This document shows, piece after piece, positions 1-13,868 of a stretch of 13,868 nt of DNA. Under the pieces are notes generated by a model. The model was not told the origin of the DNA. It was given only the letters and a program-made list of their open reading frames with translations, and ran no database searches. Each line of letters opens with the position of its first letter. Position 1 is the first letter of the stretch. The DNA is taken from the UHGV virus genome UHGV-0175553; one strand, written 5' to 3'. Position numbers and translations under genes: made by a program. The DNA comes from a virus.

Positions 1-60
1 CTGCTACAGGTGCTGCCGCTGGTGTAGGCGCTGCTACAGGTGCTGCCGCTGGTGTTACGC
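1..60. repeat. 30-bp direct repeat, 2 copies (ctgctacaggtgctgccgctggtgtaggcg / ...ttacgc), truncated by window start
   Basis: Positions 1-25 are identical to 31-55. Lies in the C-terminal Ala/Pro-rich tail of the minus-strand DUF2815-like gene. Shares the 13-mer tgctacaggtgct with the 21-bp repeat at the window end. Confidence 0.9.
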
Positions 61-655
61 CGATCAGACGTGCACCTTCAGGCATTGCAGGAGCAGCACC
101 GAACACAGAGGCAGGAGCCGGACCAGAAATGATTTCTTCACCTGCATAAAGCAGTTGCGCCATTTCCATGTTGATATACACACCAGCCTGATTACCTGTA
201 CGACCGTTTGCAACAGATGATCCGCTGATACGGTAGTAATAACCTTTTTTCGCCAGATTTTTATCAATAACTGGCTGGTACGCCGCGTTATAAACCGGAC
301 ACGCGTCAATAGCCACGTTGCGTGAGAAACCAATTACCCAGTGACCAGCATAACCAGTTTTACTCGCATGTTTCGGATCATCACCGTTAATAATTTTCCA
401 TGCGAAAGTAGGTTGTTGTGGTTCGCCGTTCACATAGTGTGAGTTAGCCGCTCGCATAATCGCCTGGAATACCGCACCCAGTTCACCTTGTTCTTCCCAC
501 CAGTTCGCCGCTGTTTTAGGAAACGCCAGACCAACCCACCAGTTGTGTTTTTCAGGTGCTAACGGTTTATTTTCGTGGTCATGAGTGTTGATATCGAAAA
601 AAGAACCGCCAACCAGACGACCAACCGGAGTTACAAAAGATTCTTTCTGTGCCAT
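1..655 (-). CDS. Putative gp2.5/DUF2815-like ssDNA-binding protein, C-terminus runs off window start
   Basis: Not in the supplied ORF track (no stop inside window). Minus-strand ATG at 655-653 with RBS AAGAAGG 8 nt upstream; open frame continues to position 2. Translation begins MAQKESFVTPVGRLVGGSFFDINTHD...WWVGLAFPK...YYYRISG...GVYINMEM and ends in an Ala/Pro-rich tail (GVTPAAAPVAAPTPAAAPVA). Sits immediately downstream of the DUF2800-like nuclease, the usual partner arrangement. Family call is by context and pattern only. Confidence 0.55.
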   Translation of the reverse strand, partial: MAQKESFVTPVGRLVGGSFFDINTHDHENKPLAPEKHNWWVGLAFPKTAANWWEEQGELGAVFQAIMRAANSHYVNGEPQQPTFAWKIINGDDPKHASKTGYAGHWVIGFSRNVAIDACPVYNAAYQPVIDKNLAKKGYYYRISGSSVANGRTGNQAGVYINMEMAQLLYAGEEIISGPAPASVFGAAPAMPEGARLIGVTPAAAPVAAPTPAAAPVA

Positions 656-670
656 GTTATTAACCTTCTT

Positions 671-1816: not shown

Positions 1817-2568
1817 CAGAATGCTCCACCCATTTGTTTAACAGATTCAGCCTGACCAACAATGTTTTCAGCATCAGCCGGGGCCGCGTTAATGCGTTCA
1901 ATCAGTTCGATGATAGATTTCAGTTTTACCGGGTCGTCAATCTGCATCACGTTCTGAGTTTCATACAGTCCCATGATTCGCTGACTTAATGGCGCAGCAC
2001 GGTCACCCGTAATTTGTCCAAACATCTGCATCAGTGCTGACTGAAGAACCTGTGTGTTATAAACTTTAGCCGGATCCGTGGTTACAGGTTGCTCGACAGG
2101 CGCGACTGGTGCAGCCGGTGCTGCTGGTACAACTGGAGCTACCGGAGCGGCAGGAACCGCTGGAGCAGGATCAACAGGTGCTACATAACCTGGTGCAAGT
2201 TCTGCAGGTCCGGTATAACGCCCTGCTTCAACTGCTTCAGCGATAAGTTCACGTTTAACACCGTCAACAAACGCTTCATCCAGTTTTTTCTTTTGACGCC
2301 ACAGACCATCACCTTTGTTCAGGGATTTACTGTCAGTGTGGATACGCGGATCATGACGCAAACCCCATTTGTCGAACTCTTCAGTGCTGGTTTCGTTATC
2401 GTCAACATCTTCAGTTGGTGTAGATACAACAGGCAGTGATTCAGCAACGACAGAAACGATTTCTTCTTTCGTAATCGGTGAGACACTTTTACCAGCAATC
2501 GCTGCTGCCAGATTGTTGATCGCAGTTTCCAGACCCGGAGCAGTTACAAGTAATTTAACTTCGAACAT
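1816..2568 (-). CDS. Hypothetical protein, two segments joined by an Ala/Pro/Val-rich linker
   Basis: 250-aa ORF, first gene of the minus-strand operon; RBS GAGGAAAACG upstream of ATG at 2568. Contains PAPAVPAAPVAPVVPAAPAAPVAPV linker. No recognisable catalytic motif. Confidence 0.65.
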   Translation of the reverse strand: MFEVKLLVTAPGLETAINNLAAAIAGKSVSPITKEEIVSVVAESLPVVSTPTEDVDDNETSTEEFDKWGLRHDPRIHTDSKSLNKGDGLWRQKKKLDEAFVDGVKRELIAEAVEAGRYTGPAELAPGYVAPVDPAPAVPAAPVAPVVPAAPAAPVAPVEQPVTTDPAKVYNTQVLQSALMQMFGQITGDRAAPLSQRIMGLYETQNVMQIDDPVKLKSIIELIERINAAPADAENIVGQAESVKQMGGAF

Positions 2569-2600
2569 TACGTTTTCCTCTTGTTGTTTGGTTGTCGCTA

Positions 2601-2641
2601 ACTTTAAAAGGTGTTGTGTAATCTGTCAAGAATTATTTTAC
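2601..2641 (-). promoter_or_regulatory. Sigma70-like promoter for the minus-strand operon, carrying the conserved AAAATAATTCTTGACAGATTAC element
   Basis: Minus strand reads gtaaaataattcTTGACAgattacacaacacctttTAAAGTt: -35 TTGACA (2630-2625), 17-18 bp spacer, -10 TAAAGT-like; about 25 nt upstream of ATG at 2568. Confidence 0.55.
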
Positions 2642-2678
2642 ACTCGCCTTTCGTTGATGCAGATGTTAGAGGAATAAG

Positions 2679-2707
2679 TTGCAATGCGTCAAGAACTATT
2701 TTAAAAT
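2679..2707 (+). promoter_or_regulatory. Candidate sigma70 promoter for the helicase operon
   Basis: TTGCAA (2679-2684), 17 bp spacer, TAAAAT (2702-2707), about 30 nt upstream of ATG 2739. Its spacer overlaps a second, degenerate minus-orientation copy of the conserved element (plus-strand cgtcaagaactattttaaaa, 2687-2706). Confidence 0.45.
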
Positions 2708-2738
2708 TTTTTCACGATTCGATATTACAGGGTAGAAA

Positions 2739-4400
2739 ATGAAAGCTCGTTATTATCAGACTGAAGCTATCAATAACGTATGTCAGGCATGGTCAAGCGG
2801 TGCTGACGACGTGATTCTTGTGCTTCCCACGGGGGCAGGAAAAACGTTCTGTATGTCTGAACTGGTAAAAACAAGAGACGGTGTAAAAGTCATCCAGGCA
2901 CACCGTAAGGAACTGGTTAGCCAAATCGCAATGGCTGTTGCTCGTCAAGGGTTAGCACACAGATTTATAGCGCAAAAAGATACTGTTAAGTTTGCAACTA
3001 ATCAGCAGATGAAAACGCTTGGTTACAGTACCTATTCCCCCGGCGCTGACATCGTTATTACCAGTTCACAAACGTTAAGAACAAAACAGTACGAACGATG
3101 GTACAACGACGTGTCTCTTGTGTTCAGCGACGAAGCGCATCACCTGGTACGTGGCACACAGTGGGGAGACTGCCGGGAAAAATTCCCTAACGCTAAAGGT
3201 CTGGGTGTTACAGCTACACCGATCCGTGCTGACGGTAAAGGCCTGGGTCGTCATGCGTCAGGTTACGCAGATCAAATGATCATTGGTCCGTCAATGCGTG
3301 AGTTAATCAGTCAACAACATCTGGCTGATTATCGTCTGATTATGGCTGAAACAGACCTGGAATTAACTGCAGAAATGATTTCTCACACGACGGGTGATTA
3401 CAAACCATCTGCATTAAAAAAAGCGATGGAAGATTCAAACATTGTTGGTGATACCGTCAGTACGTGGAAAACATATGCAGATGGCTTACTCACTGTTGTT
3501 TTTACGTGTGACGTAGATTCTGCTGAAGCACTGGCAAAAGAATTTCGCGATGCTGGTATTCCTGCAGAGGCGATCAGCTCACGAAACAGCAATCAGGAAC
3601 GAGCGGATATCCTGGAACGTTTTGAACGACGTAAGACGCTTGTACTGTGTAACAACGATTTATTCGGTGAAGGATACGACTGTCCGGCAATGGAATGTGC
3701 AGTAATGGACCGTCCCACAGAATCTTACTCTTTGTTTGTACAACAAATGGGTCGACCATTGCGTTTCAAACCGGGTAAAAAAGCACTGATTATTGATAAA
3801 GTCGGTAATGTTCGTCGATTTCTGGCCCGTGGTTTTCCACTTCCCGATCAGCACTACAACTGGTCTTTAGATGACCGTGACCGTCGTTCATCAAACAGCA
3901 GTGGGAACAGTAACACAACGTGTACAAACAAGGGTGATCCTGATAACGGTATTCCACCGTGTCTGAAGCCTTATCCGTCTGGTCTGCCGTGCTGCCCATA
4001 TTGTGGTCATATTCCTGAAAAAGCCGAACGCTCAGGCCCGGATCGTGTAGAAGGTAATTTACGTGAACTGACACCTGAAGAACTGGAAGAATTACGCCGG
4101 GCAGTTGTGATAATCGACCGTGACCCTGTTGCAGTAAAAGAACAAATGTTAAACGCTGGTGCACCCCCTGTTGCAGCTTACAGTGCAATGAAAAACATTC
4201 AGGCAATGAACGATGCACAGCGTAAGTTACGCGGCATGATTACCACATGGGCGGGTATTCAACGTGATAAAGGTATACCCGTTGATGACGCTTACAAGAT
4301 GTTTTACAGGGTGTTTGGTGTTGATGTACTTAGCGCTCAGGGGTTACGTACTCGTGAAGCTAATGAACTCGCTGCAAGGGTTGCAAGTTCATTAATCTGA
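2739..4400 (+). CDS. SF2 DEAD/DEAH-box helicase (ResIII-like ATPase core) with C-terminal Cys-rich extension
   Basis: 553 aa. Q-motif YYQTEAI, Walker A LPTGAGKT, DEAH box FSDEAHH, motif III TATP, motif VI QQMGRPLR. C-terminal extension has a Cys cluster CLKPYPSGLPCCPYCGH. Confidence 0.9.
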   Translation: MKARYYQTEAINNVCQAWSSGADDVILVLPTGAGKTFCMSELVKTRDGVKVIQAHRKELVSQIAMAVARQGLAHRFIAQKDTVKFATNQQMKTLGYSTYSPGADIVITSSQTLRTKQYERWYNDVSLVFSDEAHHLVRGTQWGDCREKFPNAKGLGVTATPIRADGKGLGRHASGYADQMIIGPSMRELISQQHLADYRLIMAETDLELTAEMISHTTGDYKPSALKKAMEDSNIVGDTVSTWKTYADGLLTVVFTCDVDSAEALAKEFRDAGIPAEAISSRNSNQERADILERFERRKTLVLCNNDLFGEGYDCPAMECAVMDRPTESYSLFVQQMGRPLRFKPGKKALIIDKVGNVRRFLARGFPLPDQHYNWSLDDRDRRSSNSSGNSNTTCTNKGDPDNGIPPCLKPYPSGLPCCPYCGHIPEKAERSGPDRVEGNLRELTPEELEELRRAVVIIDRDPVAVKEQMLNAGAPPVAAYSAMKNIQAMNDAQRKLRGMITTWAGIQRDKGIPVDDAYKMFYRVFGVDVLSAQGLRTREANELAARVASSLI

Positions 4401-4441
4401 TGGTAATCTGCATAGAAATATTTTAAACGTAAGGAATTGTA

Positions 4442-4948
4442 ATGCGTGATTTGATGGTTGACATTGAGACGTGTGGTACTAAACCAGGTTGTGCAGTGTT
4501 GTCAATTGGCGCTGTTTACTTTGATCGTCAGGGTGATATTGGTGAAACGTTTTACGCATCAATGGGTTTTAATGCGCTTGCTTATGGTCACACGGACCCT
4601 GACACTATGAAGTGGTGGTCGCAGCAGTCAGAACAAGCACAAAAAGATGCTTTTAGTGGTACTGCCGATCCTGTTCAGGTTGCTAAAGATTTTGCCAAAT
4701 TCATCTGGCACGATGCTAAACCGTGGGGAAATGGTTCCACATTCGATATCACTATTCTGGAAGCATGGTTTAATGCTGTTGGGGTTCGTTGCCCGTGGAA
4801 GTTCTGGAATGTTCGTGATGTTCGTACAGCTGTTGATTTGCTGGGTATTAACCCGAAAGAATTTACCCGTGACGGTACTTACCACAACGCGTTAGACGAC
4901 TGTTTACACCAGATTAAATATCTTACTAGTGGGACTAAAATATTATGA
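4442..4948 (+). CDS. DEDDh-family 3'-5' exonuclease (DnaQ-like fold)
   Basis: 168 aa. Exo I motif MVDIETCG (D-x-E) at N-terminus and Exo III motif YHNALDDC (H-x-A-x-x-D) near C-terminus. RBS AAGGA upstream. Confidence 0.8.
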   Translation: MRDLMVDIETCGTKPGCAVLSIGAVYFDRQGDIGETFYASMGFNALAYGHTDPDTMKWWSQQSEQAQKDAFSGTADPVQVAKDFAKFIWHDAKPWGNGSTFDITILEAWFNAVGVRCPWKFWNVRDVRTAVDLLGINPKEFTRDGTYHNALDDCLHQIKYLTSGTKIL

Positions 4949-5436
4949 CAACGCTTGAACAATGGGCGATTCGTCACGGTATTAGTCAGATGGCGTTGTA
5001 CGAGTTATACGCTCTTTATCAGCCTGACGGAACACCACACGAAGACGGTGTAAGTGAAAGCGCTACCAGTAAAGAGTGTGAACTGATTGCGGCACGTGCA
5101 GGGCAACGTATCTGGCGTAATAACTCAGGTGCTCTGAAAAACGAAAAAGGAATGATGGTTCGTTATGGTCTTGGTAACACCAGTGCGAAAATCAACGCTG
5201 TTATGAAGTCAAGCGACTACATCGGCATTAAAACCAAAATCGTTACACCGGATATGATCGGTTCAAAAGTGGGCGTCTTTATTGCTGCCGAAATGAAACG
5301 CCCTGACTGGCACATGATCCCCAGTGATAAACGTGCACAAGCACAGGCCACTTTCGGTGCGATTGTTGAAAACGCAGGTGGTGAATTTCGTTTCATCACT
5401 CACCCTTCACAATTTGAAAAATGGATTAAACAATGA
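4945..5436 (+). CDS. VRR-NUC domain nuclease (PD-(D/E)XK)
   Basis: 163 aa. WRNNSGA, SSDYIG and AAEMK motifs in the order and spacing typical of VRR-NUC. ATGA overlap with the exonuclease stop. Confidence 0.75.
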   Translation: MTTLEQWAIRHGISQMALYELYALYQPDGTPHEDGVSESATSKECELIAARAGQRIWRNNSGALKNEKGMMVRYGLGNTSAKINAVMKSSDYIGIKTKIVTPDMIGSKVGVFIAAEMKRPDWHMIPSDKRAQAQATFGAIVENAGGEFRFITHPSQFEKWIKQ

Positions 5437-5606
5437 ATACTGAACGCATTGAACGTCTGCAAAAACTGATTGATAACCACGGTATTGAAGCTGTTGCCAA
5501 ACGTCTGAACGTTACTGAAATTCATGTTAAACGTAATCTGCTTACCGGGCGATCTGCTATCAACCTGGTCAAACTGATGGCTGCTGAACGTCAGTTCGGA
5601 GCGTAA
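5433..5606 (+). CDS. Small helix-turn-helix protein (57 aa)
   Basis: Not in ORF track (below its length cutoff). ATG at 5433 overlaps the VRR-NUC stop; stop TAA at 5604-5606 lies 3 nt before the primase start. Translation MNTERIERLQKLIDNHGIEAVAKRLNVTEIHVKRNLLTGRSAINLVKLMAAERQFGA has an HTH-like segment (IEAVAKRLNVTEIHVKRNL). Exactly fills the gap between two coupled genes. Confidence 0.5.
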   Translation: MNTERIERLQKLIDNHGIEAVAKRLNVTEIHVKRNLLTGRSAINLVKLMAAERQFGA

Positions 5607-5609
5607 ATT

Positions 5610-7964
5610 ATGAAAGGGTTACTGAACCGTAAACAGTGGGTCATGTGGCGACTTGAGACAGTCGCCGATCGTCCAAAACCAACGAAAGTACCATACAGCC
5701 CGGTACACGGTTATAAAGCCAGTACCACTAACCCTAACGACTGGTCTGACTATCACACCGCGTTGGGTATGGCGCAAATGTACGGTATGTCCGGTGTTGG
5801 TTTTGTATTCACAGAAAATGACCCTTATTTCTTTATCGATGTTGATAACTGTCTGGTAGATCAGGCAACAGCTACGTGGTCACCTCTGGCGCATGAATTC
5901 GTAAACCGTTTCCCAAATGCTTACACTGAAGTAAGTCAGTCAGGAACAGGTTTACATATCATCTGTGCTTATACCAGCATACCGGAAGGTTTTAACAGTC
6001 TTAACGACCAGAAAACCGGGCTGGAAATGTACTGGCGTGATCGTTTCGTCGCGATGACACTCACGGGTAATGGTGATGTTGATATTGATTATACCCAGGG
6101 CATTCATGATTCTATTGCCCGGTATGGTCGTATCCGTTCAGACCGTTCCGCACGCTGGACAACAGCACCCTGTGATGACTGGTCAGGTCCGGCAGACGAT
6201 GATGAACTGATTAAAATGGCGTTAAATTCGTCCAGTGCTGCTTCAGTATTTGGTAATAAAGCGTCATTTGCGGATCTGTGGAATGCAAACGTTGAACGCC
6301 TGTCTGTGTCATATCCCAGCGACCAGGGAAAAGACTACAATGCATCTGCCGCTGATGCTGCCCTGTGCTCACACCTTGCGTTCTGGACCGGGAAAGATTG
6401 CGAACGTATTGAACGATTGTTTAACCGTTCCGGGCTGGTTCGTGGTAAATGGACAGATCGTCAGGATTACCGTGAAAACACGATTCTGGGCGCTGTGGAA
6501 CGTTGTGATACGGTTTATCGTAGTCAACCGACACTGACACCAGAACTGATGAAAGCAGTCACACCAGCGCCTACCGTCGTTCCTAACGGTGGAACACCTG
6601 CGTACATGAGTGTGAAACCCGGTGAAGGTGCATATGGTTCAAACCACACGGTTAACGCATCCACGTTCGTTAATAACTATTATCCGAACAACACATTGAT
6701 TTTCGTCCAGCAACAGCCGTACCGGTTCAACGGTCGTGTGTGGGAACGTGTCAGTGAAGATGAACTGAAACATCAAATTTCTATGGCAATGCTTGCCAGC
6801 GAACCAAAAGCTGACGTGATTAATGGTACGTACAAGGTATTGTCGTATTTATTCACACGCGCTGATCGTGAGCTTGGAACATGGCCCGGTGTTGATGTAT
6901 CACACTATATTGTTTGTCAGAACGGGATACTGGATGTACACACGGGTAAATGTGATGCACATAACCCGGATTTCTTTACGACCAGTATTTTACCGTATAG
7001 CTACGATCCATTTGCTCGTGCACCAGCGTTTGAACAGTTTTTAAATACAACTCTGGAAGGTGATCAGGAACGTATTGCACTGTTGCAGGAATGGCTGGGT
7101 TACATGCTTGTCAACTCGTATGACTATCAGAAAGCGATGCTGTTGATTGGTGCACCACGTTCCGGTAAAGGCACGATTGGTCGTATCATTCAGGCACTGG
7201 TAGGTGATGAAGCGTATGCGGGGATCACACTGGAGGGTTTAGCTAGTGATGCGGTACTTGAAACTGTGCTGGATAAATCTGTGCTGTTTATCGGTGATGC
7301 TCACAGTGTGTCCGGGCCTGATCGCAACCGAATTCTGGACCGTTTCAAATCTATTACAGGTTGTGATGCGATTCCGGTTAATCGTAAATATAAAGGTGCA
7401 TGGAACGGTCGTTTACCGGGACGTATGACACTGGCTGCTAACAACATCCCGGCATTTGCTGATGATTCCGGTGCAATGGCTAACCGTTTGCTGATCCTGC
7501 CATTCAACATTTCGTTCCTGGGTCGTGAAGATACTACTCTGGAAGCACGACTGATGAAAGAACTACCGGGGATCTGTAACTGGGCGATTGAAGGTTTACA
7601 ACGGTTACGTGCAAACGGACGGTTTACTGAACCAAAAGCAAGTCTGGAAGAACGTCAGGAAATTATGGATCAACAATCACCACTTAGAAGTTTTATCAGA
7701 GATTGTTGCGAATTGGTATCTGATGGTGAGGTGCACACTGAAGAACTCTATGGTCGTTATCGTCTCTGGAAAACACAGGAAGGTGGTCCAGCAATGACTA
7801 AAACTGCATTTAGTCGGGCGTTTAAATCCACCCTTCGTGGTAAAGTGAAAAAAGACGTTGTTAATATAAATAACGTACGACTAAACGGTTTCAGGGGTAT
7901 TCGTCTTCTCCCTTTTCAGTCAACAGCTAATGTAGTGCCTTTCCCACCTGCGAGTAACGGTTAG
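5610..7964 (+). CDS. Bifunctional primase-polymerase / SF3 helicase (prim-pol N-terminal domain, PriCT-like region, D5_N/P4-type helicase)
   Basis: 784 aa. Prim-pol motifs FFIDVDNC (acidic metal site) and SQSGTGLHIIC (SxSGxGxH). Central AADAALCSHLAFWTGKDCERIERLFNRSGL resembles a primase C-terminal (PriCT) region. C-terminal half has Walker A GAPRSGKGT and Walker B-like LFIGDAHS. Confidence 0.9.
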   Translation: MKGLLNRKQWVMWRLETVADRPKPTKVPYSPVHGYKASTTNPNDWSDYHTALGMAQMYGMSGVGFVFTENDPYFFIDVDNCLVDQATATWSPLAHEFVNRFPNAYTEVSQSGTGLHIICAYTSIPEGFNSLNDQKTGLEMYWRDRFVAMTLTGNGDVDIDYTQGIHDSIARYGRIRSDRSARWTTAPCDDWSGPADDDELIKMALNSSSAASVFGNKASFADLWNANVERLSVSYPSDQGKDYNASAADAALCSHLAFWTGKDCERIERLFNRSGLVRGKWTDRQDYRENTILGAVERCDTVYRSQPTLTPELMKAVTPAPTVVPNGGTPAYMSVKPGEGAYGSNHTVNASTFVNNYYPNNTLIFVQQQPYRFNGRVWERVSEDELKHQISMAMLASEPKADVINGTYKVLSYLFTRADRELGTWPGVDVSHYIVCQNGILDVHTGKCDAHNPDFFTTSILPYSYDPFARAPAFEQFLNTTLEGDQERIALLQEWLGYMLVNSYDYQKAMLLIGAPRSGKGTIGRIIQALVGDEAYAGITLEGLASDAVLETVLDKSVLFIGDAHSVSGPDRNRILDRFKSITGCDAIPVNRKYKGAWNGRLPGRMTLAANNIPAFADDSGAMANRLLILPFNISFLGREDTTLEARLMKELPGICNWAIEGLQRLRANGRFTEPKASLEERQEIMDQQSPLRSFIRDCCELVSDGEVHTEELYGRYRLWKTQEGGPAMTKTAFSRAFKSTLRGKVKKDVVNINNVRLNGFRGIRLLPFQSTANVVPFPPASNG

Positions 7965-7982
7965 TCATTGCACAAGGATGTG

Positions 7983-8023
7983 TAAAATAATTCTTGACGA
8001 ATTACAGATGTGTACGCTATAGT
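7983..8023 (+). promoter_or_regulatory. Sigma70-like promoter with the conserved upstream element
   Basis: taaaataattcTTGACGaattacagatgtgtacgcTATAGT: -35 TTGACG (7994-7999), 18 bp spacer, -10 TATAGT (8018-8023). A short inverted repeat TGTAC...GTACA overlaps the -10. Confidence 0.6.
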
Positions 8024-8054
8024 CTGTACATCAAGTGAACAAGGAGTGATTATT

Positions 8055-8252
8055 ATGAAAAACATATTTGACCGTTTAATTACTGTTATCGTATTTCTTG
8101 TGTCCGTAACACTCGCGTCTTGTATTGTCGGACTAATGACCCGTGGTAATCATGCGGAAACACCGTGGTGGTTTCTGGCGGATCTTGGATTATTAGCGGC
8201 TGCGGCATCAATTGGTGCTTGCATGTGGGGAGTGAAAAACGATCATGACTGA
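8055..8252 (+). CDS. Small membrane protein with lipoprotein-type signal (lipobox LASC)
   Basis: Preferred start ATG 8055 with RBS AAGGAG 8 nt upstream (the track's GTG start at 8010 lies inside the -10 region). 65 aa: MKNIFDR n-region, hydrophobic LITVIVFLVSVT, lipobox L-A-S-C with Cys at position 23, then a second hydrophobic stretch WWFLADLGLLAAAASIGACMW. Confidence 0.6.
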   Translation: MKNIFDRLITVIVFLVSVTLASCIVGLMTRGNHAETPWWFLADLGLLAAAASIGACMWGVKNDHD

Positions 8253-8460
8253 ATTCGGTGCTGTAATCAAAAAAGAAGACCGTTATGCACATATTGATAC
8301 CCGGATTACCTGGGTTGATATTAGTGACGCTACTCTGTTCAGTTCAACTTACATGGCTGGTGTTGCACTTAAAGCACTCCGTGATCAAGGTTTCAATTGT
8401 AAAAAAGTAACAATTGCACCTGTTAAAATCACACGAATCGTCGAGGAGACAGAAGGATGA
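8245..8460 (+). CDS. Hypothetical protein (71 aa)
   Basis: ORF translationally coupled on both sides (8-nt overlap upstream, ATGA overlap downstream). No recognisable motif. Confidence 0.5.
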   Translation: MTEFGAVIKKEDRYAHIDTRITWVDISDATLFSSTYMAGVALKALRDQGFNCKKVTIAPVKITRIVEETEG

Positions 8461-9137
8461 AAGTCGTCTGGTCATTATTCGATGGTTCCGGGATCATGGG
8501 TTTACCGTGGGCTAAGGCTGGCTATCAGGCTTATTGCTTTAATGCTGATTCCGGTAATCACGGGGAATATAAAATCAAAATGCAACACCCAAATCTTCAT
8601 TACGTTAATCAGTGGATTGACCCACAATTTGCAATTAAGCAGGAAATACTGGGAACACCTTTACCGTCAATTATTTTTGGTTTTCCGGATTGCACCCTGT
8701 TTGCTCAAAGCGGTTCGCAACATGACCGGGATGACGCTGAACTACAGTATGCACTGGCAAACGCAAAACTGATCCGTGAACTCGGAGAACGTTATAACGT
8801 ACCCTGGATGGTGGAAAACCCTGTCGGTGCTTTATCGCGTCCTGAAATGATGGGACCACCTAACGCTTATTTTCATCCGTGGGAATATGGCGGTTATATG
8901 ACAACAGATGATAAACCTTTTCACCCTAAAATGCCGATGTTTGACGGATACACGAAGAAAACATGTCTGTGGTTCGGTAACGGTTTCAGAATGCCTGAAA
9001 AACGTCCCGGACCGATTAATATTGGTTTCTTCTGGGGCTGGAAATATCTGGGTGGTAAGTCTGAAACAACTAAACAATTACGTTCATTAACCCCGCGTGG
9101 CTTTGCTCGCGCTGTATTTGAGGCTAATAAACAATGA
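8457..9137 (+). CDS. Short, divergent C5-cytosine methyltransferase-like protein with no room for a target-recognition domain
   Basis: 226 aa. Motif I-like SLFDGSGIMGLPWAKAG (FxGxG...GL..AG), motif IV-like GFPDCTLFAQSG (aligns to GGPPCQxFSxAG, catalytic Cys kept, PDC instead of PC), motif VI-like MVENPVGA (ENV). RBS GAGGAG 9 nt upstream. Confidence 0.6.
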   Translation: MKVVWSLFDGSGIMGLPWAKAGYQAYCFNADSGNHGEYKIKMQHPNLHYVNQWIDPQFAIKQEILGTPLPSIIFGFPDCTLFAQSGSQHDRDDAELQYALANAKLIRELGERYNVPWMVENPVGALSRPEMMGPPNAYFHPWEYGGYMTTDDKPFHPKMPMFDGYTKKTCLWFGNGFRMPEKRPGPINIGFFWGWKYLGGKSETTKQLRSLTPRGFARAVFEANKQ

Positions 9138-9529
9138 TAATTGTCGTCACAGGTGGTCGTGACTTTAACGACAGAACAGCAGTGTTTTCCGCGTTAGGAC
9201 TACTTCACAAACAATTTCCGGTTACCGAACTAATTGAAGGAGGTGCGTCAGGTGTTGATAACCTGTGTAAGCAATGGGCGCAATTACACGGTATTCCTGT
9301 GCGTAGTTGCCCGGCAGCGTGGGACGATCTGACTGTACCTGGTGCGGTTGTAAAACAGGGTAAGCACGGGGCTTATAACGCTGTTGCAGGTCATCAACGT
9401 AATCAGGCGATGTTAGAGGGTGAACCACGCCCTATATACGGTGTTATGTTCCCCGGTGGTCGTGGTACTGCTGATATGCACCGTCGCATGTTGAAAGCTG
9501 GTTTAACTGTGTGGGTTCCGTATCCTTAA
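9134..9529 (+). CDS. SLOG-superfamily protein (DprA/LOG-like Rossmannoid, DUF2493-like)
   Basis: 131 aa. IVVTGGRDF, EGGASGVD (DprA-like GGxxGxD) and FPGGRGTADM (LOG-like PGGxGT) motifs. ATGA overlap with the MTase-like gene. Confidence 0.5.
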   Translation: MIIVVTGGRDFNDRTAVFSALGLLHKQFPVTELIEGGASGVDNLCKQWAQLHGIPVRSCPAAWDDLTVPGAVVKQGKHGAYNAVAGHQRNQAMLEGEPRPIYGVMFPGGRGTADMHRRMLKAGLTVWVPYP

Positions 9530-9566
9530 AATAATTCTTGACAGATTACCAACCCTCCCCGATAAT
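9527..9566 (+). promoter_or_regulatory. Strong sigma70-like promoter with the conserved upstream element
   Basis: taaaataattcTTGACAgattaccaaccctccccGATAAT: consensus -35 TTGACA (9538-9543), exactly 17 bp spacer, -10 GATAAT (9561-9566). GAGG RBS precedes ATG 9601. Confidence 0.7.
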
Positions 9567-9600
9567 TAGCCTCAGTTAACACACATGAGGTTAAACACAA

Positions 9601-9855
9601 ATGGCTAACAAGATTGAACTTTCCGACGCTGCGATTGATGTTATTTATGCATTATTTTTCCGTGGTGCTCTTTACTCTGGCGATTTACCGTCTAAATCAG
9701 GTGCTGCTGAACTTCGCGCTTACGGTTTTGCCGCTACGTGCGATACAAAAACTGAATATCAGAAAGAAACCTATTTCACTTTCCTTACTGCAGAAGGTCA
9801 GCAGTATGCTATCGACTTTCTGGTAAAAACTAATTTCGGACGCAAACAGGACTAA
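9601..9855 (+). CDS. Hypothetical protein (84 aa), first gene after a strong promoter
   Basis: ORF with RBS; no recognisable motif. Position directly behind a near-consensus promoter suggests early high expression. Confidence 0.55.
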   Translation: MANKIELSDAAIDVIYALFFRGALYSGDLPSKSGAAELRAYGFAATCDTKTEYQKETYFTFLTAEGQQYAIDFLVKTNFGRKQD

Positions 9856-9860
9856 CAACC

Positions 9861-10628
9861 ATGGCTAACATTAACTCCCTTCGCAAGCTGTCTGATACCG
9901 ATAAAACCAACGTAAAACGTGGTAACGCATATCGCATTGATCCGCGTATCATCAAGATTCGCCCGGGTCATAACCCACGGGGTGTGTTTACCGACAACTA
10001 CTGGGAAACTGAAGCAGCACTGGCACACATTGAAAACTTTCGTCAGGCTTATACCAACGGCGATTTCGTTCCACCGATCGTGGTACAGGTTGTTGACGGT
10101 GTTCCGTATGTCCAGGATGGTGAGCATCGTTTACGTGGCGTATTGGCAGCTATTGAGGCCGGGACGCCGATTCTGACAGTAGACGTTGTTGAATCATCTG
10201 GTGATGAACTACAGCAGACCCTGACACTATTAAAAGGTAATGAAGGTAAACCGTGGTCACCTGTTGAACGTGCTGTTATTTACGGTCGTTTCCGTTCATA
10301 TGGCATGAGTGTTGAGCAGATCGCTACACAGGTCGGTAAAACCGTCCAACATGTTTACGAACAACTGAATATTCTTGATATGCCGCTGGAACTTAAACGT
10401 CGGATCCAGAATGGTGAAATCAGCGCGTCAGCAGCCATACGCCAGTTTAAAGCAGGTGATAAAGAACCAGTAGTAACGCGTCGTCCACCTGCTAAACTAG
10501 TACGATCTGCAGTGGAAGCAATCCGTGGTGAATGGTCTGTAACCCGTTCGGAAGGTGGTAAAGTCCTGGTTGAACTCACCACTGAACAGTTCGAAGCGTT
10601 AAAAGCACTGAAGGAGCACCAGTTATGA
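9861..10628 (+). CDS. ParB/Srx-fold (ParB N-terminal domain) protein with HTH
   Basis: 255 aa. ParB box-like VQDGEHRLRGVLAA (GxxRxxA arginine-finger motif) followed by an HTH-like MSVEQIATQVGKTVQHVYEQLNIL. Confidence 0.7.
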   Translation: MANINSLRKLSDTDKTNVKRGNAYRIDPRIIKIRPGHNPRGVFTDNYWETEAALAHIENFRQAYTNGDFVPPIVVQVVDGVPYVQDGEHRLRGVLAAIEAGTPILTVDVVESSGDELQQTLTLLKGNEGKPWSPVERAVIYGRFRSYGMSVEQIATQVGKTVQHVYEQLNILDMPLELKRRIQNGEISASAAIRQFKAGDKEPVVTRRPPAKLVRSAVEAIRGEWSVTRSEGGKVLVELTTEQFEALKALKEHQL

Positions 10629-10795
10629 AAACTATGTCAGACAACTTAACATCAATTTACGGTACGTTGACCTGTCGTTCTAAATTTAAACCGTTGACAA
10701 AAGAAGAAGAACGTCAGTGTAAGTTCAATAACAGTTTTCCCAGCGTTAATGAAAATCGTTGGATTGCCAAACTAACCGGGAGTAAAAAGAAATGA
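10625..10795 (+). CDS. Hypothetical small protein (56 aa)
   Basis: Not in ORF track (short). ATG 10625 overlaps the ParB-like stop (ATGA); its own stop overlaps the next ATG (10792). Translation MKTMSDNLTSIYGTLTCRSKFKPLTKEEERQCKFNNSFPSVNENRWIAKLTGSKKK. Supported only by coupling geometry. Confidence 0.35.
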   Translation: MKTMSDNLTSIYGTLTCRSKFKPLTKEEERQCKFNNSFPSVNENRWIAKLTGSKKK

Positions 10796-11007
10796 GTGAT
10801 AAATATGAAAAACTCGACAAATTGATTTTGAATAGAATTGGCAACCGATACATTCCTTTTTGTGACATATTTGAAGGTGCTATATTTGAAGAATGCGATC
10901 GGCTTACTGGCAATGAACCAGCCTGTGTTCTGGATCGTCGTTTACAAGCACTGAAAAAGAAAGGTTTAATTATTTCATGTCGCGGTAAAGGATGGGTGAA
11001 AGTATGA
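10792..11007 (+). CDS. Hypothetical protein (71 aa), possible winged-helix-like C-terminus
   Basis: ORF with coupled start; C-terminal LDRRLQALKKKGLIISCRGKGW resembles a winged-helix wing, but this is weak. Confidence 0.5.
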   Translation: MSDKYEKLDKLILNRIGNRYIPFCDIFEGAIFEECDRLTGNEPACVLDRRLQALKKKGLIISCRGKGWVKV

Positions 11008-11228
11008 CTATCCGACTGATGAATCCAACAGTTGCCCGTGATATTAAACCAGGTGACAAGATTGAAGTATTTAACGAATGGTATTGGGTACGTTATATCA
11101 ATTACCACGGGGCAACACTTACCCTTCGCTTACAACCGGAAGATGAACCGCTATCACCATTTTGTGAAAACGACCGCGTTGTGGTGACAGTACCAGAAGA
11201 TCTAATGATTGATGTCGAGGTGCGTTAA
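11004..11228 (+). CDS. Hypothetical protein (74 aa)
   Basis: Preferred start ATG 11004 (ATGA overlap with upstream stop) rather than the track's 10992. No recognisable motif. Confidence 0.45.
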   Translation: MTIRLMNPTVARDIKPGDKIEVFNEWYWVRYINYHGATLTLRLQPEDEPLSPFCENDRVVVTVPEDLMIDVEVR

Positions 11229-11648
11229 ATGACTGTGTACGAAATGGAAGGTTTTCTTCGTGGTAAATGTGTTCCGGGCGACCTGAAAGTTAACGAAACA
11301 AACGCTGAATATCTGGTACGCAAATTTGCTGAAGCGGAGGCCAAGTGCGCGGCGCTGGTTGCGGAGAATGCGGGGCTGAAGAAGTTCTGCAAAGACGCTG
11401 CATTCGATGCTGATTACGAAGCCGAGCTTGGTATGGAGCGTGGTGGATTCAGTGATGCGCTTAACGAAATCAAAACCCCAGCCACCGATGCTTTTCTGGC
11501 TGAAGTGCGTGCGCAAGGCGTGGATATGGCTCGTAACGCGATGATTGATTTTGTTGATGGTGAAGTTGGGCCAAACAAGAACGTTCCGGGGCTGATTAGA
11601 GGCGCAGAGATATGCGTAAGTATTGCTGAACAGCTTCGTAAAAGGTGA
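11229..11648 (+). CDS. Hypothetical protein (139 aa), Ala-rich, with an internal GC-rich segment
   Basis: RBS GAGGTG 7 nt upstream of ATG 11229, which directly follows the previous stop. Internal segment (about 11330-11540) is compositionally distinct from neighbouring genes. Confidence 0.6.
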   Translation: MTVYEMEGFLRGKCVPGDLKVNETNAEYLVRKFAEAEAKCAALVAENAGLKKFCKDAAFDADYEAELGMERGGFSDALNEIKTPATDAFLAEVRAQGVDMARNAMIDFVDGEVGPNKNVPGLIRGAEICVSIAEQLRKR

Positions 11649-11652
11649 GTTC

Positions 11653-11916
11653 GTGTATGAGTATCAGACTAACAGGTTCCCTCGTAACGGTTTGAAGTGG
11701 TCCGCACGAGATCTGGCGTTATTAAAAATTAATGCAGGAAAGATCAGTGCGGATGAAATAGCGTATTACCTTCGCCGGGACGTTGAAGCGGTGCACATTA
11801 AAGCGTCACGTCTCGGTATATCACTGGTGACCAATAAATGTAAACGTGGTCATGCGCGAGTTTACCAAAAAGGTAGATGGCGCTGTCCTGATTGTAGAAA
11901 ATTAAAAGGGTATTGA
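11653..11916 (+). CDS. Putative DNA-binding protein with HTH-like region and C-terminal zinc-ribbon-like motif
   Basis: Preferred GTG start at 11653 (RBS AAAAGG 7 nt upstream, just after the upstream TGA at 11646-11648); the track's start at 11623 is a TTG inside the previous gene. WSARDLALLKINAGKISADEIAYYLRRDVEAVHIKASRLGISL is HTH-like; CKRGHARVYQKGRWRCPDCRK is C/H-x-n-CxxC zinc-ribbon-like. Confidence 0.5.
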   Translation: MYEYQTNRFPRNGLKWSARDLALLKINAGKISADEIAYYLRRDVEAVHIKASRLGISLVTNKCKRGHARVYQKGRWRCPDCRKLKGY

Positions 11917-11918
11917 AT

Positions 11919-12152
11919 ATGAAAATTAAAAACATGGCTGCAAGTGGTCTGTCAGGCCGTATCTTTTACGGTACGATGGAAACAAAAGACGGTGGTCAGT
12001 CTGGTAAATGGTTAGCAGGAAAGCAAGACGTTACTGATATGGCGATCCGTGCAGTTGCTGAACATTGTCTTCTGACAGGGAACAAATATTCATTTACACT
12101 TAACGACGGTCGTGTGATTACACTGGCAGTAACAGAGGTACAACCATCATGA
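11919..12152 (+). CDS. Hypothetical protein (77 aa)
   Basis: Preferred ATG at 11919 (RBS AAAAGGG about 9 nt upstream); the track's 11913 start is a TTG. Stop overlaps the next gene's ATG (12149). Confidence 0.5.
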   Translation: MKIKNMAASGLSGRIFYGTMETKDGGQSGKWLAGKQDVTDMAIRAVAEHCLLTGNKYSFTLNDGRVITLAVTEVQPS

Positions 12153-12718
12153 CACCTGAACAATTCGCAACAGCAGCACACGGTGATCAACTTCGTAAGT
12201 ACACCAACGACCCATATGTGAACCACTGCCGGAACGTTGCTGAACTGGTTAAACGCTATGGTGGTACGCCGGATATGGTTACCGCTGCCTGGCTACATGA
12301 CGTCGTTGAAGATACGCCCGTGACCGTGGGTGATGTGTGTTCGCAGTTCGGTGAGACTGTGGCACGTTATGTTGATCAGCTTACTGATGTGAGTCGTCCA
12401 CACCACGGTAACCGTGTTAAGCGTAAAGCACGGGACATCGACCATTTATCACGGGCTGAACCTGTGGTAAAAACCATAAAACTGTGTGATCTGCTGGATA
12501 ACACCTATTCAATTGTCCGACACGATCCGAAGTTTGCTGTAACGTACCTGGCTGAAAAACAACTCATGCTTGCTCATCTGTCAGACGCAAGCAACCAGGA
12601 GTTATACGCACTTGTTGAGCGTGAATTGTTTAAAGCCAAATACAAACTAACGAACGTCCAGTTGACCGCGTTTGACAAACACTACGACGCACTGGTTAAA
12701 GCGATGGGGGAGCTGTGA
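12149..12718 (+). CDS. SpoT/Mesh1-like HD-domain small alarmone hydrolase (putative (p)ppGpp/(p)ppApp pyrophosphohydrolase)
   Basis: 189 aa. AAHGDQLRKY...DPYVNHCRNVA...AAWLHDVVEDT...IKLCDLLDN reproduces the RelA/SpoT hydrolase-domain signature (H-x2-Q-x-RK, PY-x2-H, LHDvvEDT, KLxDxLxN), i.e. the H...HD...D metal ligands. Size matches single-domain SAHs. Confidence 0.8.
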   Translation: MTPEQFATAAHGDQLRKYTNDPYVNHCRNVAELVKRYGGTPDMVTAAWLHDVVEDTPVTVGDVCSQFGETVARYVDQLTDVSRPHHGNRVKRKARDIDHLSRAEPVVKTIKLCDLLDNTYSIVRHDPKFAVTYLAEKQLMLAHLSDASNQELYALVERELFKAKYKLTNVQLTAFDKHYDALVKAMGEL

Positions 12719-12720
12719 GT

Positions 12721-12891
12721 ATGAAAGAAATAGAACAACTGGTTAAACGTTTACGTGCTGCTGGTCATCAAATTACTGTTGAAAATAACTGGATAGTGGT
12801 TAACCCACCATGTTCTTTATCTGATACGCTTTTAATTCAGAAATTGAATAAAGGTGAAAAACTGGCTAATTATATTAAGGAAAACCCGTAA
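12721..12891 (+). CDS. Hypothetical small protein (56 aa)
   Basis: Not in ORF track (short). ATG 12721 lies 2 nt after the SAH stop, with RBS GGGGGAG about 9 nt upstream. Translation MKEIEQLVKRLRAAGHQITVENNWIVVNPPCSLSDTLLIQKLNKGEKLANYIKENP. Stop TAA 12889-12891 overlaps the next ATG. Confidence 0.45.
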   Translation: MKEIEQLVKRLRAAGHQITVENNWIVVNPPCSLSDTLLIQKLNKGEKLANYIKENP

Positions 12892-13031
12892 TGAAACTAA
12901 AACTTCCAGTATACTGGTTTTCCGTAAGCTGGAACAGTTACAGTAAGTGGGGTTATTTCAAACTGTGGCATGACGGGCCGTACCGCGCATTCTGGATCGG
13001 TCGTCTTTGTTTCGAATGGTGGTGGCGATGA
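12891..13031 (+). CDS. Hypothetical Trp-rich small protein (46 aa)
   Basis: Not in ORF track (short). ATG 12891 with RBS AAGGAAA 8 nt upstream. Translation MKLKLPVYWFSVSWNSYSKWGYFKLWHDGPYRAFWIGRLCFEWWWR (8 Trp). Stop TGA overlaps the next ATG (13028). Confidence 0.4.
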   Translation: MKLKLPVYWFSVSWNSYSKWGYFKLWHDGPYRAFWIGRLCFEWWWR

Positions 13032-13249
13032 TTGCAGATAACTTACTGTGTAAACTACGTGCGGATCTGATTAACAAAAGGTTTTGTCGTGATATAAACA
13101 AACCACTGGCATTTGTAAAAGTGCTCAACGTCTACAGAGCAGGTCGTGGTTTTAAGGTTATGTTCAGATACGGTGATGACGGTCCTGTCGTATATTGCGG
13201 TTATACCAATTTTTTGAAACGTTACCCAGAGGAACTAACACATGAATAA
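13028..13249 (+). CDS. Hypothetical protein (74 aa)
   Basis: Preferred start ATG 13028 (ATGA overlap with the upstream small ORF); the track's 13007 start is a TTG. No recognisable motif. Confidence 0.45.
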   Translation: MIADNLLCKLRADLINKRFCRDINKPLAFVKVLNVYRAGRGFKVMFRYGDDGPVVYCGYTNFLKRYPEELTHE

Positions 13250-13496
13250 AGCATCGCCTGTAGAAATACGTAAGTGTCTTGAAATGGTAAACAGTCTTGC
13301 ACATGCCGGGATTAGATTTGTTCCTATACCGGTAACCAGTGATGATGAATTTAATTCGCTGGTTTCTCATTCTTACGGGATACTGGACAAAATAGTAGAC
13401 GATTTTGACACCGCTAACCGCCAGTTCGAAAGCCTCAGCAACCACAAACATCACTTCATCAACGGCACTTGCGTAGAGTGCCTGAAAAGTGAATAA
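13242..13496 (+). CDS. Hypothetical protein (84 aa)
   Basis: ATG 13242 with RBS GAGGAA 8 nt upstream. Last gene of the plus-strand operon, followed by a terminator-like hairpin. Confidence 0.55.
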   Translation: MNKASPVEIRKCLEMVNSLAHAGIRFVPIPVTSDDEFNSLVSHSYGILDKIVDDFDTANRQFESLSNHKHHFINGTCVECLKSE

Positions 13497-13596: not shown

Positions 13597-13625
13597 AAAA
13601 AGCGGGGCTAACTACCCCGCTATCT
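13597..13625 (-). terminator. Putative rho-independent terminator for the minus-strand gene (possibly bidirectional)
   Basis: Stem GCGGGG (13602-13607) / CCCCGC (13615-13620), 7-nt loop. On the minus strand the hairpin is followed by TTTT (plus-strand AAAA at 13597-13600); on the plus strand it is followed by TATCTTTATT. Lies directly after the minus-strand stop at 13626-13628. Confidence 0.5.
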
Positions 13626-13868
13626 TTATTGACCCATCATATCTTTATACATCATCAAAACAACATCATCCGGCATATTATCTACATCGCAATGCGGGTT
13701 GTGTGATAACGCATACAGCCTGATTTTCTCCTTCAAATCGCTGACATCGACTACAGGTGCTTCCACTCGTGCTACAGGTGCTTCCACTCGTGCTACAGGT
13801 GCTTCCACTCGTGCTACAGGTGCTTCCACTCGTGCTACAGGTGCTTCCACTCGTGCTACAGGTGCTTC
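13626..13868 (-). CDS. 3' end of a minus-strand gene encoding a heptad-repeat (APVARVE)n protein; N-terminus beyond window end
   Basis: Open frame continues to the last base of the window. The track's M at 13850 is an internal GTG (Val) inside the repeat, so the true start is outside the window. C-terminal sequence: ...(APVARVE)x5 APVVDVSDLKEKIRLYALSHNPHCDVDNMPDDVVLMMYKDMMGQ. Confidence 0.6.
   Translation of the reverse strand, partial: EAPVARVEAPVARVEAPVARVEAPVARVEAPVARVEAPVVDVSDLKEKIRLYALSHNPHCDVDNMPDDVVLMMYKDMMGQ
13751..13868. repeat. Perfect 21-bp direct tandem repeat (ctacaggtgcttccactcgtg), 5 full copies plus 13 nt, truncated by window end
   Basis: Read directly: identical units start at 13751, 13772, 13793, 13814, 13835 and 13856. 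In frame with the minus-strand CDS, encoding APVARVE heptads. Confidence 0.95.

Follow-up and report, generated by a model that had tools for sequence, protein, structure and literature searches.

The window, by which we mean the whole 13,868-nucleotide stretch of viral DNA that was analyzed, carries on its plus strand an open reading frame that runs from an ATG to a stop codon and encodes a protein of 189 amino acids. From its sequence and predicted structure we identify the product as a single-domain RelA/SpoT-type hydrolase, that is, a small alarmone hydrolase (SAH). The gene belongs to a string of plus-strand genes between positions 8010 and 13496, in which 13 of the 16 successive gene junctions overlap and one abuts; the first-pass annotation had described a string of small coupled ORFs here, accurately. 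Both junctions of the SAH gene are 4-nt overlaps, ATGA upstream and GTGA downstream. The locus comprises the following features:

9538-9566, plus strand: candidate promoter, sigma-70-like TTGACA-17-GATAAT, an 11/12 match, identified by consensus match only.
10679-13183, plus strand: mosaic accessory block of 2,505 bp with about ten small genes including the SAH gene, precisely missing from Salmonella phage Sasha (blastn against Sasha and Bas82; Sasha annotation).
11913-12152, plus strand: upstream gene for a 79-aa DUF7446 protein (Pfam DUF7446, E = 2.5e-19), its stop overlapping the SAH start.
12134-12138, plus strand: Shine-Dalgarno-like AGAGG, 10 nt 5′ of the SAH start codon and within the end of the upstream gene (from the sequence).
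12149-12718, plus strand: SAH coding sequence with a single HD_4 domain, stop codon included (ORF list and translation, Pfam, AF2 model, fold search).
12715-12891, plus strand: downstream gene for a 58-aa protein of PHROG 5649 (unknown function), its GTG start overlapping the SAH stop (ORF list, PHROG).
13601-13621, no strand assigned: GC-rich hairpin resembling a bidirectional terminator, at which the plus-strand string and a converging minus-strand gene end (from the sequence; the Sasha record has an annotated terminator in the homologous position).

The source of the window is a virulent E. coli siphophage of the 9NA/Sasha type, with a genome of ∼58 kb. DNA identity to Escherichia phage KarinMuster_Bas82 is 97.0% over window positions 1-8060 and 92.7%-96.2% over the remaining shared segments, which bears out the phage origin proposed at first pass. 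The Bas82 ortholog of the SAH gene, Bas82_0088, is annotated as a "metal-dependent phosphohydrolase," and the two genes differ by 18 synonymous and two nonsynonymous codons; as judged from codon differences, the SAH gene is subject to purifying selection. A DUF7446 gene occupies the same position in Bas82, although the two are only 32% identical. We considered DUF7446 and SAH as a general two-gene module and rejected it: DUF7446 is not found beside the SAH gene in Salmonella phage SSU5, a Burkholderia prophage, or Endozoicomonas.

The entire accessory block is missing from Sasha, Sergei, and Solent, and the SAH gene is an accessory gene within its own phage lineage. The block is a mosaic, with matches to EaE genes from P22-like as well as Stx phages. 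GC content is 0.446 in the block and 0.488 in the SAH gene, not meaningfully different from the 0.457 of the remaining window; base composition thus gives no indication that either was recently acquired from a foreign source. The candidate promoter is the best match for the SAH-containing string and falls in the sole sizeable intergenic gap upstream (9530-9600). However, a scan of the region found seven promoter-like sites, fewer than the 11.1 in shuffled sequence, and we therefore claim no promoter beyond noting the match to the consensus.

In Pfam, the SAH protein matches HD_4 and HD only, with no synthetase, TGS, or ACT domain. HD_4 (PF13328), the profile named in the first-pass annotation for such a search, scores 55.8 bits against a gathering score of 27.2 (E = 5.9e-15, residues 5-122), and the general HD family PF01966 scores 22.9 bits, barely over its cut-off. 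TIGR00691 (spoT_relA) aligns only at its positions 4-122 of 687, which correspond to the N-terminal hydrolase part, and PHROG 990 matches with E = 7e-38. The top sequence matches in the PDB are single-domain SAHs (Lmo0812, 9e-15; human MESH1, 1.9e-13), followed by Rel/SpoT hydrolase domains. Database searches returned 1870 homologs at E ≤ 1e-5, and PF13328 is present in all 120 of the matches listed. In the phage collection, homologs occur in 285 phage records, which include phiKZ-like jumbo phages as well as Caulobacter and Rhizobium phages; SSU5 is among the best matches outside the protein's own clade. A distant blastn search of 5,426 complete E. coli genomes found no match in E. coli prophages. 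The family is already described, is annotated in GenBank, and has been tested through a 51%-identical homolog; the window gene adds one member to it.

The first-pass annotation had called the protein SpoT/Mesh1-like on the strength of four motifs, all of which are found in the translation. Residue equivalences were taken from a HMMER alignment to human MESH1 (3nr1), and conservation was scored over 21 homologs. The motifs and the predicted active-site codons are as follows:

12179-12199, plus strand: motif HGDQLRK, residues 11-17 (translation).
12194-12199, plus strand: R16-K17, a pair predicted to bind the base and phosphate of the substrate, counterpart of MESH1 R24-K25 (alignment to 3nr1; invariant in 21 homologs).
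12212-12226, plus strand: motif PYVNH, residues 22-26 (translation).
12224-12226, plus strand: H26, predicted first metal ligand, equivalent to MESH1 H35 (alignment to 3nr1; 21 homologs).
12284-12316, plus strand: motif AAWLHDVVEDT, residues 46-56 (translation).
12296-12313, plus strand: H50-D51 (predicted HD metal ligands, MESH1 H61-D62) to E54-D55 (predicted catalytic ED dyad, MESH1 E65-D66) (alignment to 3nr1).
12479-12502, plus strand: motif KLCDLLDN, residues 111-118 (translation).
12488-12502, plus strand: D114 (predicted fourth metal ligand, MESH1 D122) to N118 (MESH1 N126) (alignment; both invariant).

The metal ligands, whose alignment had been named at first pass as a deciding comparison, fall on their MESH1 counterparts in all four cases, and the tetrad is invariant among the 21 homologs. 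Of the catalytic dyad (HDxxED) in the stretch LHDVVEDT, all of these homologs retain E54 and at least 90% retain D55; R16, K17, and N118 are invariant. The AF2 model (pLDDT 96.5, pTM 0.91) has 10 helices. Its best Foldseek matches are MESH1 structures (TM 0.75-0.81, rmsd 2.0-2.4 Å, 27%-28% identity), and further top matches include PaSAH, RelH, a Leptospira SAH, and SpoT; according to the fold-search descriptions, PDB entries 7QOC, 7QOD, and 7QOE are C. glutamicum RelH and a Leptospira levettii SAH. [quoted passage not shown] Profile search, residue alignment to MESH1, conservation across the family, and fold search thus uphold the original assignment to the alarmone hydrolases.

On balance, we think it likely that the product of this accessory gene is an active 3′-pyrophosphohydrolase of the RSH family, stand-alone and metal-dependent, which reverses an RSH-based arrest imposed by the host. 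A metal, most probably Mn2+, would be held by H26, H50, D51, and D114, and E54 and D55 would activate the water that attacks the 3′-pyrophosphate ester, with the nucleotide positioned by R16, K17, and N118. From (p)ppGpp and (p)ppApp the enzyme would regenerate GTP/GDP and ATP/ADP. The analogy of MESH1 and the antitoxin ATfaRel suggests that it would also remove the 3′-pyrophosphate placed on tRNA CCA ends by defense toxins of the CapRel, FaRel2, and PhRel types, which are toxic alarmone synthetases (toxSAS); SAHs are reported to reverse such tRNA CCA pyrophosphorylation (bioRxiv 10.1101/2021.04.30.441581). The protein would be made from the replication-side operon, and the arrest of growth or translation that the host brings about by RSH chemistry would be undone, so that phage production continues. 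The roles suggested at first pass, namely, blunting the stringent response or countering synthetase toxins and defense, agree with the published view, in which the SAHs of phages SSU5 and PVP-SE1 neutralize all toxSAS tested (PMC7229694), the SSU5 enzyme being the 51%-identical homolog. The part played in infection, whether counter-defense or blunting of the stringent response, is what we infer from this evidence, and early expression would follow from the position of the gene.

As to what the enzyme mainly does in infection, one tentative proposal, which we hold to be possible but by no means probable, is counter-defense through tRNA repair: It would strip the 3′-pyrophosphate added by CapRel-type toxins from tRNA CCA ends and let a virulent siphophage escape abortive infection. 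CapRel-type systems are fused toxin-antitoxin defenses of enterobacteria. The evidence to date that phage SAHs neutralize toxSAS is all from plasmid co-expression, and to our knowledge none has so far been demonstrated as an anti-defense factor in infection. The DUF7446 gene, which swaps rapidly and is always coupled upstream of the SAH gene in this phage clade, might belong to the same anti-defense cassette.

Alternatively, the main job of the same enzyme could be to degrade host (p)ppGpp and thereby blunt the RelA/SpoT stringent response, rather than to counter toxSAS. This is compatible with the reversal of a host-imposed arrest, and we give it a minor though real chance. Coliphages including T7 are restricted by the stringent response, and means of suppressing (p)ppGpp synthesis have evolved in phages (bioRxiv 10.64898/2026.01.27.700999); the SAH that Pseudomonas phage Adele carries has been proposed to act in this way (PMC12846349). 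The protein also keeps R16, the Arg that stacks on the base in (p)ppGpp-hydrolyzing enzymes, and the occurrence of homologs in very different phages fits a universal target such as (p)ppGpp. However, the gene is dispensable and patchy in its own lineage, being absent with the block from Sasha, Sergei, and Solent, and this suits a host-specific counter-defense better than a general physiological need.

A metabolic role appears improbable. Here the main substrates would be nonalarmone 3′-phosphorylated metabolites, comparable to the NADPH and PAPS on which human MESH1 acts. The top structural matches are indeed human MESH1 complexes with NADPH and PAPS (5vxa, 9chy), and an orphan bacterial SAH has been reported to be metabolically promiscuous (PMC9765508). 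But the MESH1 match reflects a shared fold at only 27%-28% identity, the phage context holds no NADPH-related partner genes, and the closest tested homolog, that of SSU5, acts on toxSAS products in E. coli.

Still less probable is self-immunity, with the SAH as an antitoxin for a phage-encoded synthetase toxin such as a MuF-Apk2 polymorphic toxin or the toxin of a FaRel-like pair. SAH-type hydrolases are known in such roles, with ATfaRel a type IV antitoxin and Aph1 an immunity protein beside phage MuF-Apk2 toxins (PMC7229694; PMC12226406; PMC10083569). Here, however, the neighboring genes encode only 79 and 58 amino acids, too few for a synthetase, and the similarity to Aph1 is marginal (E = 0.0099). 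The MuF head-morphogenesis protein of Bas82 has just 319 amino acids, with a Phage_Mu_F domain and no C-terminal toxin; the Burkholderia and Endozoicomonas homolog loci likewise have no synthetase neighbors. A Pfam scan found no RelA_SpoT synthetase or toxin domain in the Bas82 MuF protein or in the Bas82 proteins of at least 200 aa annotated as hypothetical (Bas82_0069 being covered through its window ortholog); neither the window nor Bas82 yielded a cognate synthetase toxin. We reject an antitoxin role, which the toxin-free scan largely refutes.

Finally, it is scarcely credible that the protein has no relation to alarmones and is an inactive relic or a general HD phosphohydrolase (dNTPase or nucleotidase): The vague GenBank labels on orthologs ("metal-dependent phosphohydrolase," "polyphosphate hydrolase") and the PF01966 match slightly over its cut-off would allow it, but HD_4 outscores that profile by far, the RSH-specific ED dyad and the R and N substrate residues are present and conserved, the fold matches at E ≤ 1e-3 include no HD enzyme from outside the RSH family, and purifying selection is evident.

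Phage alarmone hydrolases are a plausible, poorly documented arm of counter-defense and host takeover, and the window gene offers an example in a tractable setting. KarinMuster (Bas82), publicly available in the BASEL collection, infects E. coli K-12 whose O-antigen has been restored, and for this host CapRel-type toxSAS defenses and stringent-response mutants exist. In this setting a knockout could be the first to show whether a phage SAH matters in infection, and what its target is. The BASEL authors could recognize no supplementary function in the additional DNA that phages of this group carry (PMC11990801); the SAH is one candidate for such a function. Against the panel of defense systems used in the same study, Bas82 showed no extra robustness, and the gene is not mentioned there (PMC11990801); we count the panel result against the explanation that the enzyme reverses a host-imposed arrest.

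Among known enzymes, the hydrolase domains of the long RSH enzymes SpoT and Rel (7qpr, 1vj7, 6s2t, 5xnx; E ∼ 1e-9 to 1e-11) share the Pfam family and catalytic machinery of the window protein. Unlike these, it has no synthetase, TGS, or ACT domain; since it lacks these regulatory parts, it should be constitutively active rather than regulated by the ribosome or ACP. MESH1 (human and Drosophila; PDB 3nr1, 5vxa, 3nqw) is likewise a single-domain SAH, with all metal and catalytic residues aligned, and hydrolyzes (p)ppGpp, (p)ppApp, and pyrophosphorylated tRNA (bioRxiv 10.1101/2021.04.30.441581; PMC10083569). It differs in being a metazoan enzyme, for which NADPH has been argued to be the physiological substrate, at the low identity given above, and the window protein has an extra C-terminal helix relative to it.

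ATfaRel and the PVP-SE1 SAH (both PbcSpo) share the proposed mode of action, in which the product of the toxin would be degraded and the toxin itself would not be bound; in sequence they are far more distant. ATfaRel, a type IV antitoxin SAH that cross-neutralizes all toxSAS tested (PMC7229694), shares an operon with its toxin, whereas the window gene does not. In PVP-SE1 the sole HD_4-like ORF that we found is gene 220, which aligns over 64-73 residues with ∼36% identity and stays under the HD_4 cut-off; it is probably the enzyme tested in that study (PMC7229694). Aph1 (7smg), from prophage MuF-Apk2 modules, is also a phage-borne HD hydrolase of 3′-pyrophosphorylated purine nucleotides. Its structural match is modest (TM ∼0.5 query-normalized, 0.65 target-normalized), and it has eight helices, with Asp where the base-stacking Arg would be (PMC10083569), whereas the window protein has 10 helices in its model and keeps R16. 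In these two features the protein appears to resemble (p)ppGpp-capable or promiscuous SAHs, not the (p)ppApp-specific Aph1; no Apk2 or IapK neighbor was found in the gene surroundings in the window or in the Bas82 protein scan.

The closest known system is SSU5_099, the SAH of Salmonella phage SSU5, which is 51% identical over residues 6-147 (145 columns, E = 1e-44). Both are stand-alone phage HD_4 hydrolases with RKYT, NH, LHDVVEDT, and KLxDLLDNT; each is an orphan that lacks a neighboring synthetase, and both phages infect enterobacteria. The phages themselves differ, SSU5 being a temperate 103-kb phage-plasmid and the source of the window a virulent siphophage, and the C-terminal ∼40 residues of the two proteins (189 aa in the window, 213 aa in SSU5) are unrelated. 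Jimmy et al. 2020 (PMC7229694) assigned the SSU5 enzyme to a subfamily named "PaSpo," and pairwise identity, as distinct from the published subfamily HMMs, suggests that the window protein belongs to the same subfamily. P. aeruginosa PaSAH (6yvc) is weakly similar to both (E = 2.8e-5 for the window protein, 2.2e-4 for SSU5_099). The SSU5 enzyme neutralizes all five toxSAS families tested, namely, CapRel, PhRel, PhRel2, FaRel, and FaRel2 (PMC7229694), and as PaSpo it has been employed to detoxify CapRelSJ46 in protein production (PMC9712102).

The first-pass annotation had placed a SpoT/Mesh1-like phage small alarmone hydrolase (SAH) among small early genes, and the ORF lies exactly where it had been located:

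12149-12718, + strand, SAH ORF, ATG to stop, 189 aa (ORF list and translation)

All four motifs quoted for this protein are found (residues 11-17, 22-26, 46-56, and 111-118), and a Shine-Dalgarno-like AGAGG lies 10 nt 5′ of the start codon. In profile searches, the protein hits the RelA/SpoT-type hydrolase family Pfam HD_4 at 55.8 bits (curated cut-off 27.2), well above the 22.9 bits of the generic HD family. NCBIfam spoT_relA is matched solely along the N-terminal hydrolase portion of the model, and PHROG 990 is matched at 7e-38. Among PDB entries, two single-domain hydrolases come out on top by sequence, Lmo0812 (9e-15) and human MESH1 (1.9e-13), and Rel and SpoT hydrolase domains rank next.

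Alignment with MESH1 pairs R16-K17 with R24-K25, E54-D55 with E65-D66, N118 with N126, and the metal ligands, the check named in the first-pass annotation, H26, H50-D51, and D114 with H35, H61-D62, and D122. Between them, these residues account for metal binding (the tetrad), catalysis (the Glu-Asp dyad), and substrate contacts; across an alignment of the SAH with 20 homologs at 44-88% identity, all are invariant except D55 (≥90% conserved). A very high-confidence AlphaFold2 model built from the alignment with these homologs has ten helices (mean pLDDT 96.5, pTM 0.91). Foldseek against the PDB ranks MESH1 first (TM 0.75-0.81, rmsd 2.0-2.4 Å), followed by P. aeruginosa SAH, C. glutamicum RelH, Leptospira SAH, SpoT, Rel enzymes, and Aph1; at E ≤ 1e-3 there is no PDB match from outside the SAH/Rel/SpoT hydrolase class. 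Every sequence and structural criterion that could be checked (HD_4 profile, MESH1 residues, fold) thus places the protein in the SAH class, as had been claimed. Comparison with the ortholog in Escherichia phage KarinMuster_Bas82 (BASEL collection) gives 18 synonymous and two non-synonymous codon differences, indicating that the gene is maintained by selection. A generic HD phosphohydrolase or a dead enzyme is contradicted by the RSH (RelA/SpoT homologue)-specific residues, the fold matches, and this purifying selection.

The window derives from a virulent E. coli siphophage of the 9NA/Sasha type. Window 1-8060 shares 97.0% DNA identity with Bas82 and the remaining shared segments 92.7-96.2%, and gene order is common to both: exonuclease, helicase, exonuclease, primase, SLOG protein, ParB-like protein, and then small genes. 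Bas82_0088, the SAH ortholog (98.9% identical), is annotated "metal-dependent phosphohydrolase"; other near-identical phages carry the labels "polyphosphate hydrolase" or "RelA/SpoT family (p)ppGpp synthetase." The BASEL paper does not mention the gene, and its authors describe the extra genome content of Bas82's phage group as without recognisable supplementary function (PMC11990801).

The SAH gene belongs to an extended + strand string of small genes that overlap one another, 3′ of the replication module. The description of its surroundings as tiny coupled ORFs holds: from 8010 to 13496, 13 of the 16 consecutive gene junctions are overlaps and at one the genes abut, the upstream stop overlaps the SAH start as ATGA, and the next gene downstream begins with a GTG that overlaps the SAH stop. 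The string ends at the following feature:

13601-13621, bidirectional terminator-like hairpin, end of the + strand gene string

Neighboring genes belong to PHROGs of unknown function, including DUF2737, EaE-like, and DUF7446 proteins. A block of about ten genes including the SAH (10679-13183; 2,505 bp) is precisely missing from Salmonella phage Sasha, and three of its sub-segments are replaced in Bas82; the SAH is therefore cargo of a mosaic accessory region.

Within this block, ORF 11229-11648 (PHROG 614) shares 88-94% DNA identity with EaE genes from P22-like and Stx-converting phages, a likeness indicating that virulent 9NA-type phages have exchanged DNA with temperate lambdoid ones. The DUF7446 gene coupled directly 5′ of the SAH (11913-12152, +) encodes a protein only 32% identical to its Bas82 counterpart at the same position (L001:12259-12504), the final residues TEVQPS being common to both. 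Window 11931-12130 has no blastn match in Bas82, and from 12131 onward the SAH DNA is 96% identical, a pattern suggestive of local allele replacement at a gene of unknown function, with a sharp recombination boundary.

Elsewhere, this virulent phage carries a ParB-like protein gene (9861-10628, +; ParB HTH domain, E = 1.3e-6) directly 5′ of the block, whose product may act in a partition-like, nuclease, or transcriptional role. The SLOG-family protein (9134-9529, +; Pfam YAcAr/YspA, E = 2.9e-19), whose Bas82 annotation reads "GTP-binding domain," belongs to a group with links to nucleotide signalling or modification. Its gene is translationally coupled to that of a 226-aa protein without a Pfam match (8457-9137, +), whose gene matches the Sasha C-5 cytosine methylase gene at the same position only at its ends (8457-8549 and 9084-9137), so the middle (~8550-9083) has apparently been replaced. 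Between its SLOG and ParB-like genes Sasha carries an HNH endonuclease gene, gp76 (L008 4517-4945), where the window has only a 71-bp gap (9529-9600) with the best sigma-70-like promoter match (9538-9566). Window 13751-13868 is a perfect tandem repeat with a 21-bp unit (5.6 copies, 100% match) that extends past the last base of the window; on the - strand it codes for EAPVARV heptads of a protein (ORF 13626-13850 and beyond). In the homologous Sasha gene gp81, a "direct tandem repeat region" with a different copy number is annotated. Window 1-55 matches a 30-bp-period tandem repeat, with multiple offset matches at L001 65-269, inside a Bas82 gene annotated as a Gp2.5-like ssDNA-binding/annealing protein.

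Orthologs at least 90% identical occur in six E. coli phages of the window's lineage and in Salmonella phages FSL SP-062 and SP069; the gene is absent from Sasha, Sergei, and Solent, and its DNA has no match in 5,426 complete E. coli genomes. Database proteins matching at E ≤ 1e-5 number 1,870, most of ~167 aa, and distant homologs (<60% identity) occur in ~275 other phage records, including phiKZ-like jumbo, Erwinia, Caulobacter, and Rhizobium phages. The Burkholderia and Endozoicomonas copies examined lie within prophage-like strings of small genes. In the prophage-like region of the Burkholderia chromosome (L009:5391-6857), a homolog with 53% identity is surrounded by small genes of unknown function that overlap (128, 76, and 112 aa), and a gene for a phage lysozyme follows ~1.5 kb downstream; placement amid small coupled ORFs thus recurs in unrelated phages, without shared neighbors.

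From established knowledge of RSH hydrolases, we infer that the SAH is a Mn2+-dependent 3′-pyrophosphohydrolase acting on (p)ppGpp and/or (p)ppApp; an Aph1-like enzyme restricted to (p)ppApp is made less likely by the retained R16 and the ten-helix fold (PMC10083569). It would most likely strip 3′-pyrophosphates from alarmones, and probably from tRNA, thereby relieving RSH-mediated arrest in the infected cell. Either a dedicated toxic alarmone synthetase (toxSAS) defence or the housekeeping stringent response, which is reported to restrict coliphages (bioRxiv 10.64898/2026.01.27.700999), may be the selective target. That the gene is accessory and patchily distributed within the lineage leans toward host-specific counter-defence; the spread of the family across unrelated phages leans toward (p)ppGpp. 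A MESH1-like metabolic phosphatase is possible, but the genomic context offers nothing in its favor. A self-immunity or antitoxin role against a phage-encoded synthetase toxin is not supported: Genes flanking the SAH are far below synthetase size, the Bas82 MuF protein (319 aa) lacks a toxin extension, the RelA_SpoT synthetase family is matched by none of the Bas82 proteins of ≥200 aa annotated hypothetical, and the Burkholderia and Endozoicomonas loci examined hold no synthetase genes. The alarmone hydrolase reading is easy to test, with a model phage at hand, and unsurprising to a specialist.

The concept, family, and a tested homolog are already in the literature, to which the window gene adds a member. 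SAH genes have been proposed to let incoming phages bypass alarmone-based abortive infection, and each of the five toxSAS families is neutralised by co-expression of the stand-alone SAH from Salmonella phage SSU5 (PaSpo subfamily) or PVP-SE1 (PbcSpo), as shown by Jimmy et al. 2020 (PMC7229694). Most toxSASs pyrophosphorylate tRNA CCA ends, which the SAHs MESH1 and ATfaRel reverse (Kurata et al., bioRxiv 10.1101/2021.04.30.441581), and CapRelSJ46, a defence system carried by enterobacterial prophages, is routinely detoxified with SSU5 SAH (PMC9712102). PVP-SE1 gene 220, the sole HD_4-like ORF found in that phage, is only distantly similar to the window SAH, and P. aeruginosa PaSAH is weakly similar to both the window protein and SSU5_099. 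The SSU5 enzyme is the closest experimentally tested relative (SSU5_099; 51% identity over 145 columns, E = 1e-44, all motifs conserved), and on this pairwise identity the window SAH may provisionally be labeled PaSpo. The two differ in the C-terminal ~40 residues of the window SAH, which are unrelated, and in the host element: a virulent siphophage here, a temperate phage-plasmid in SSU5.
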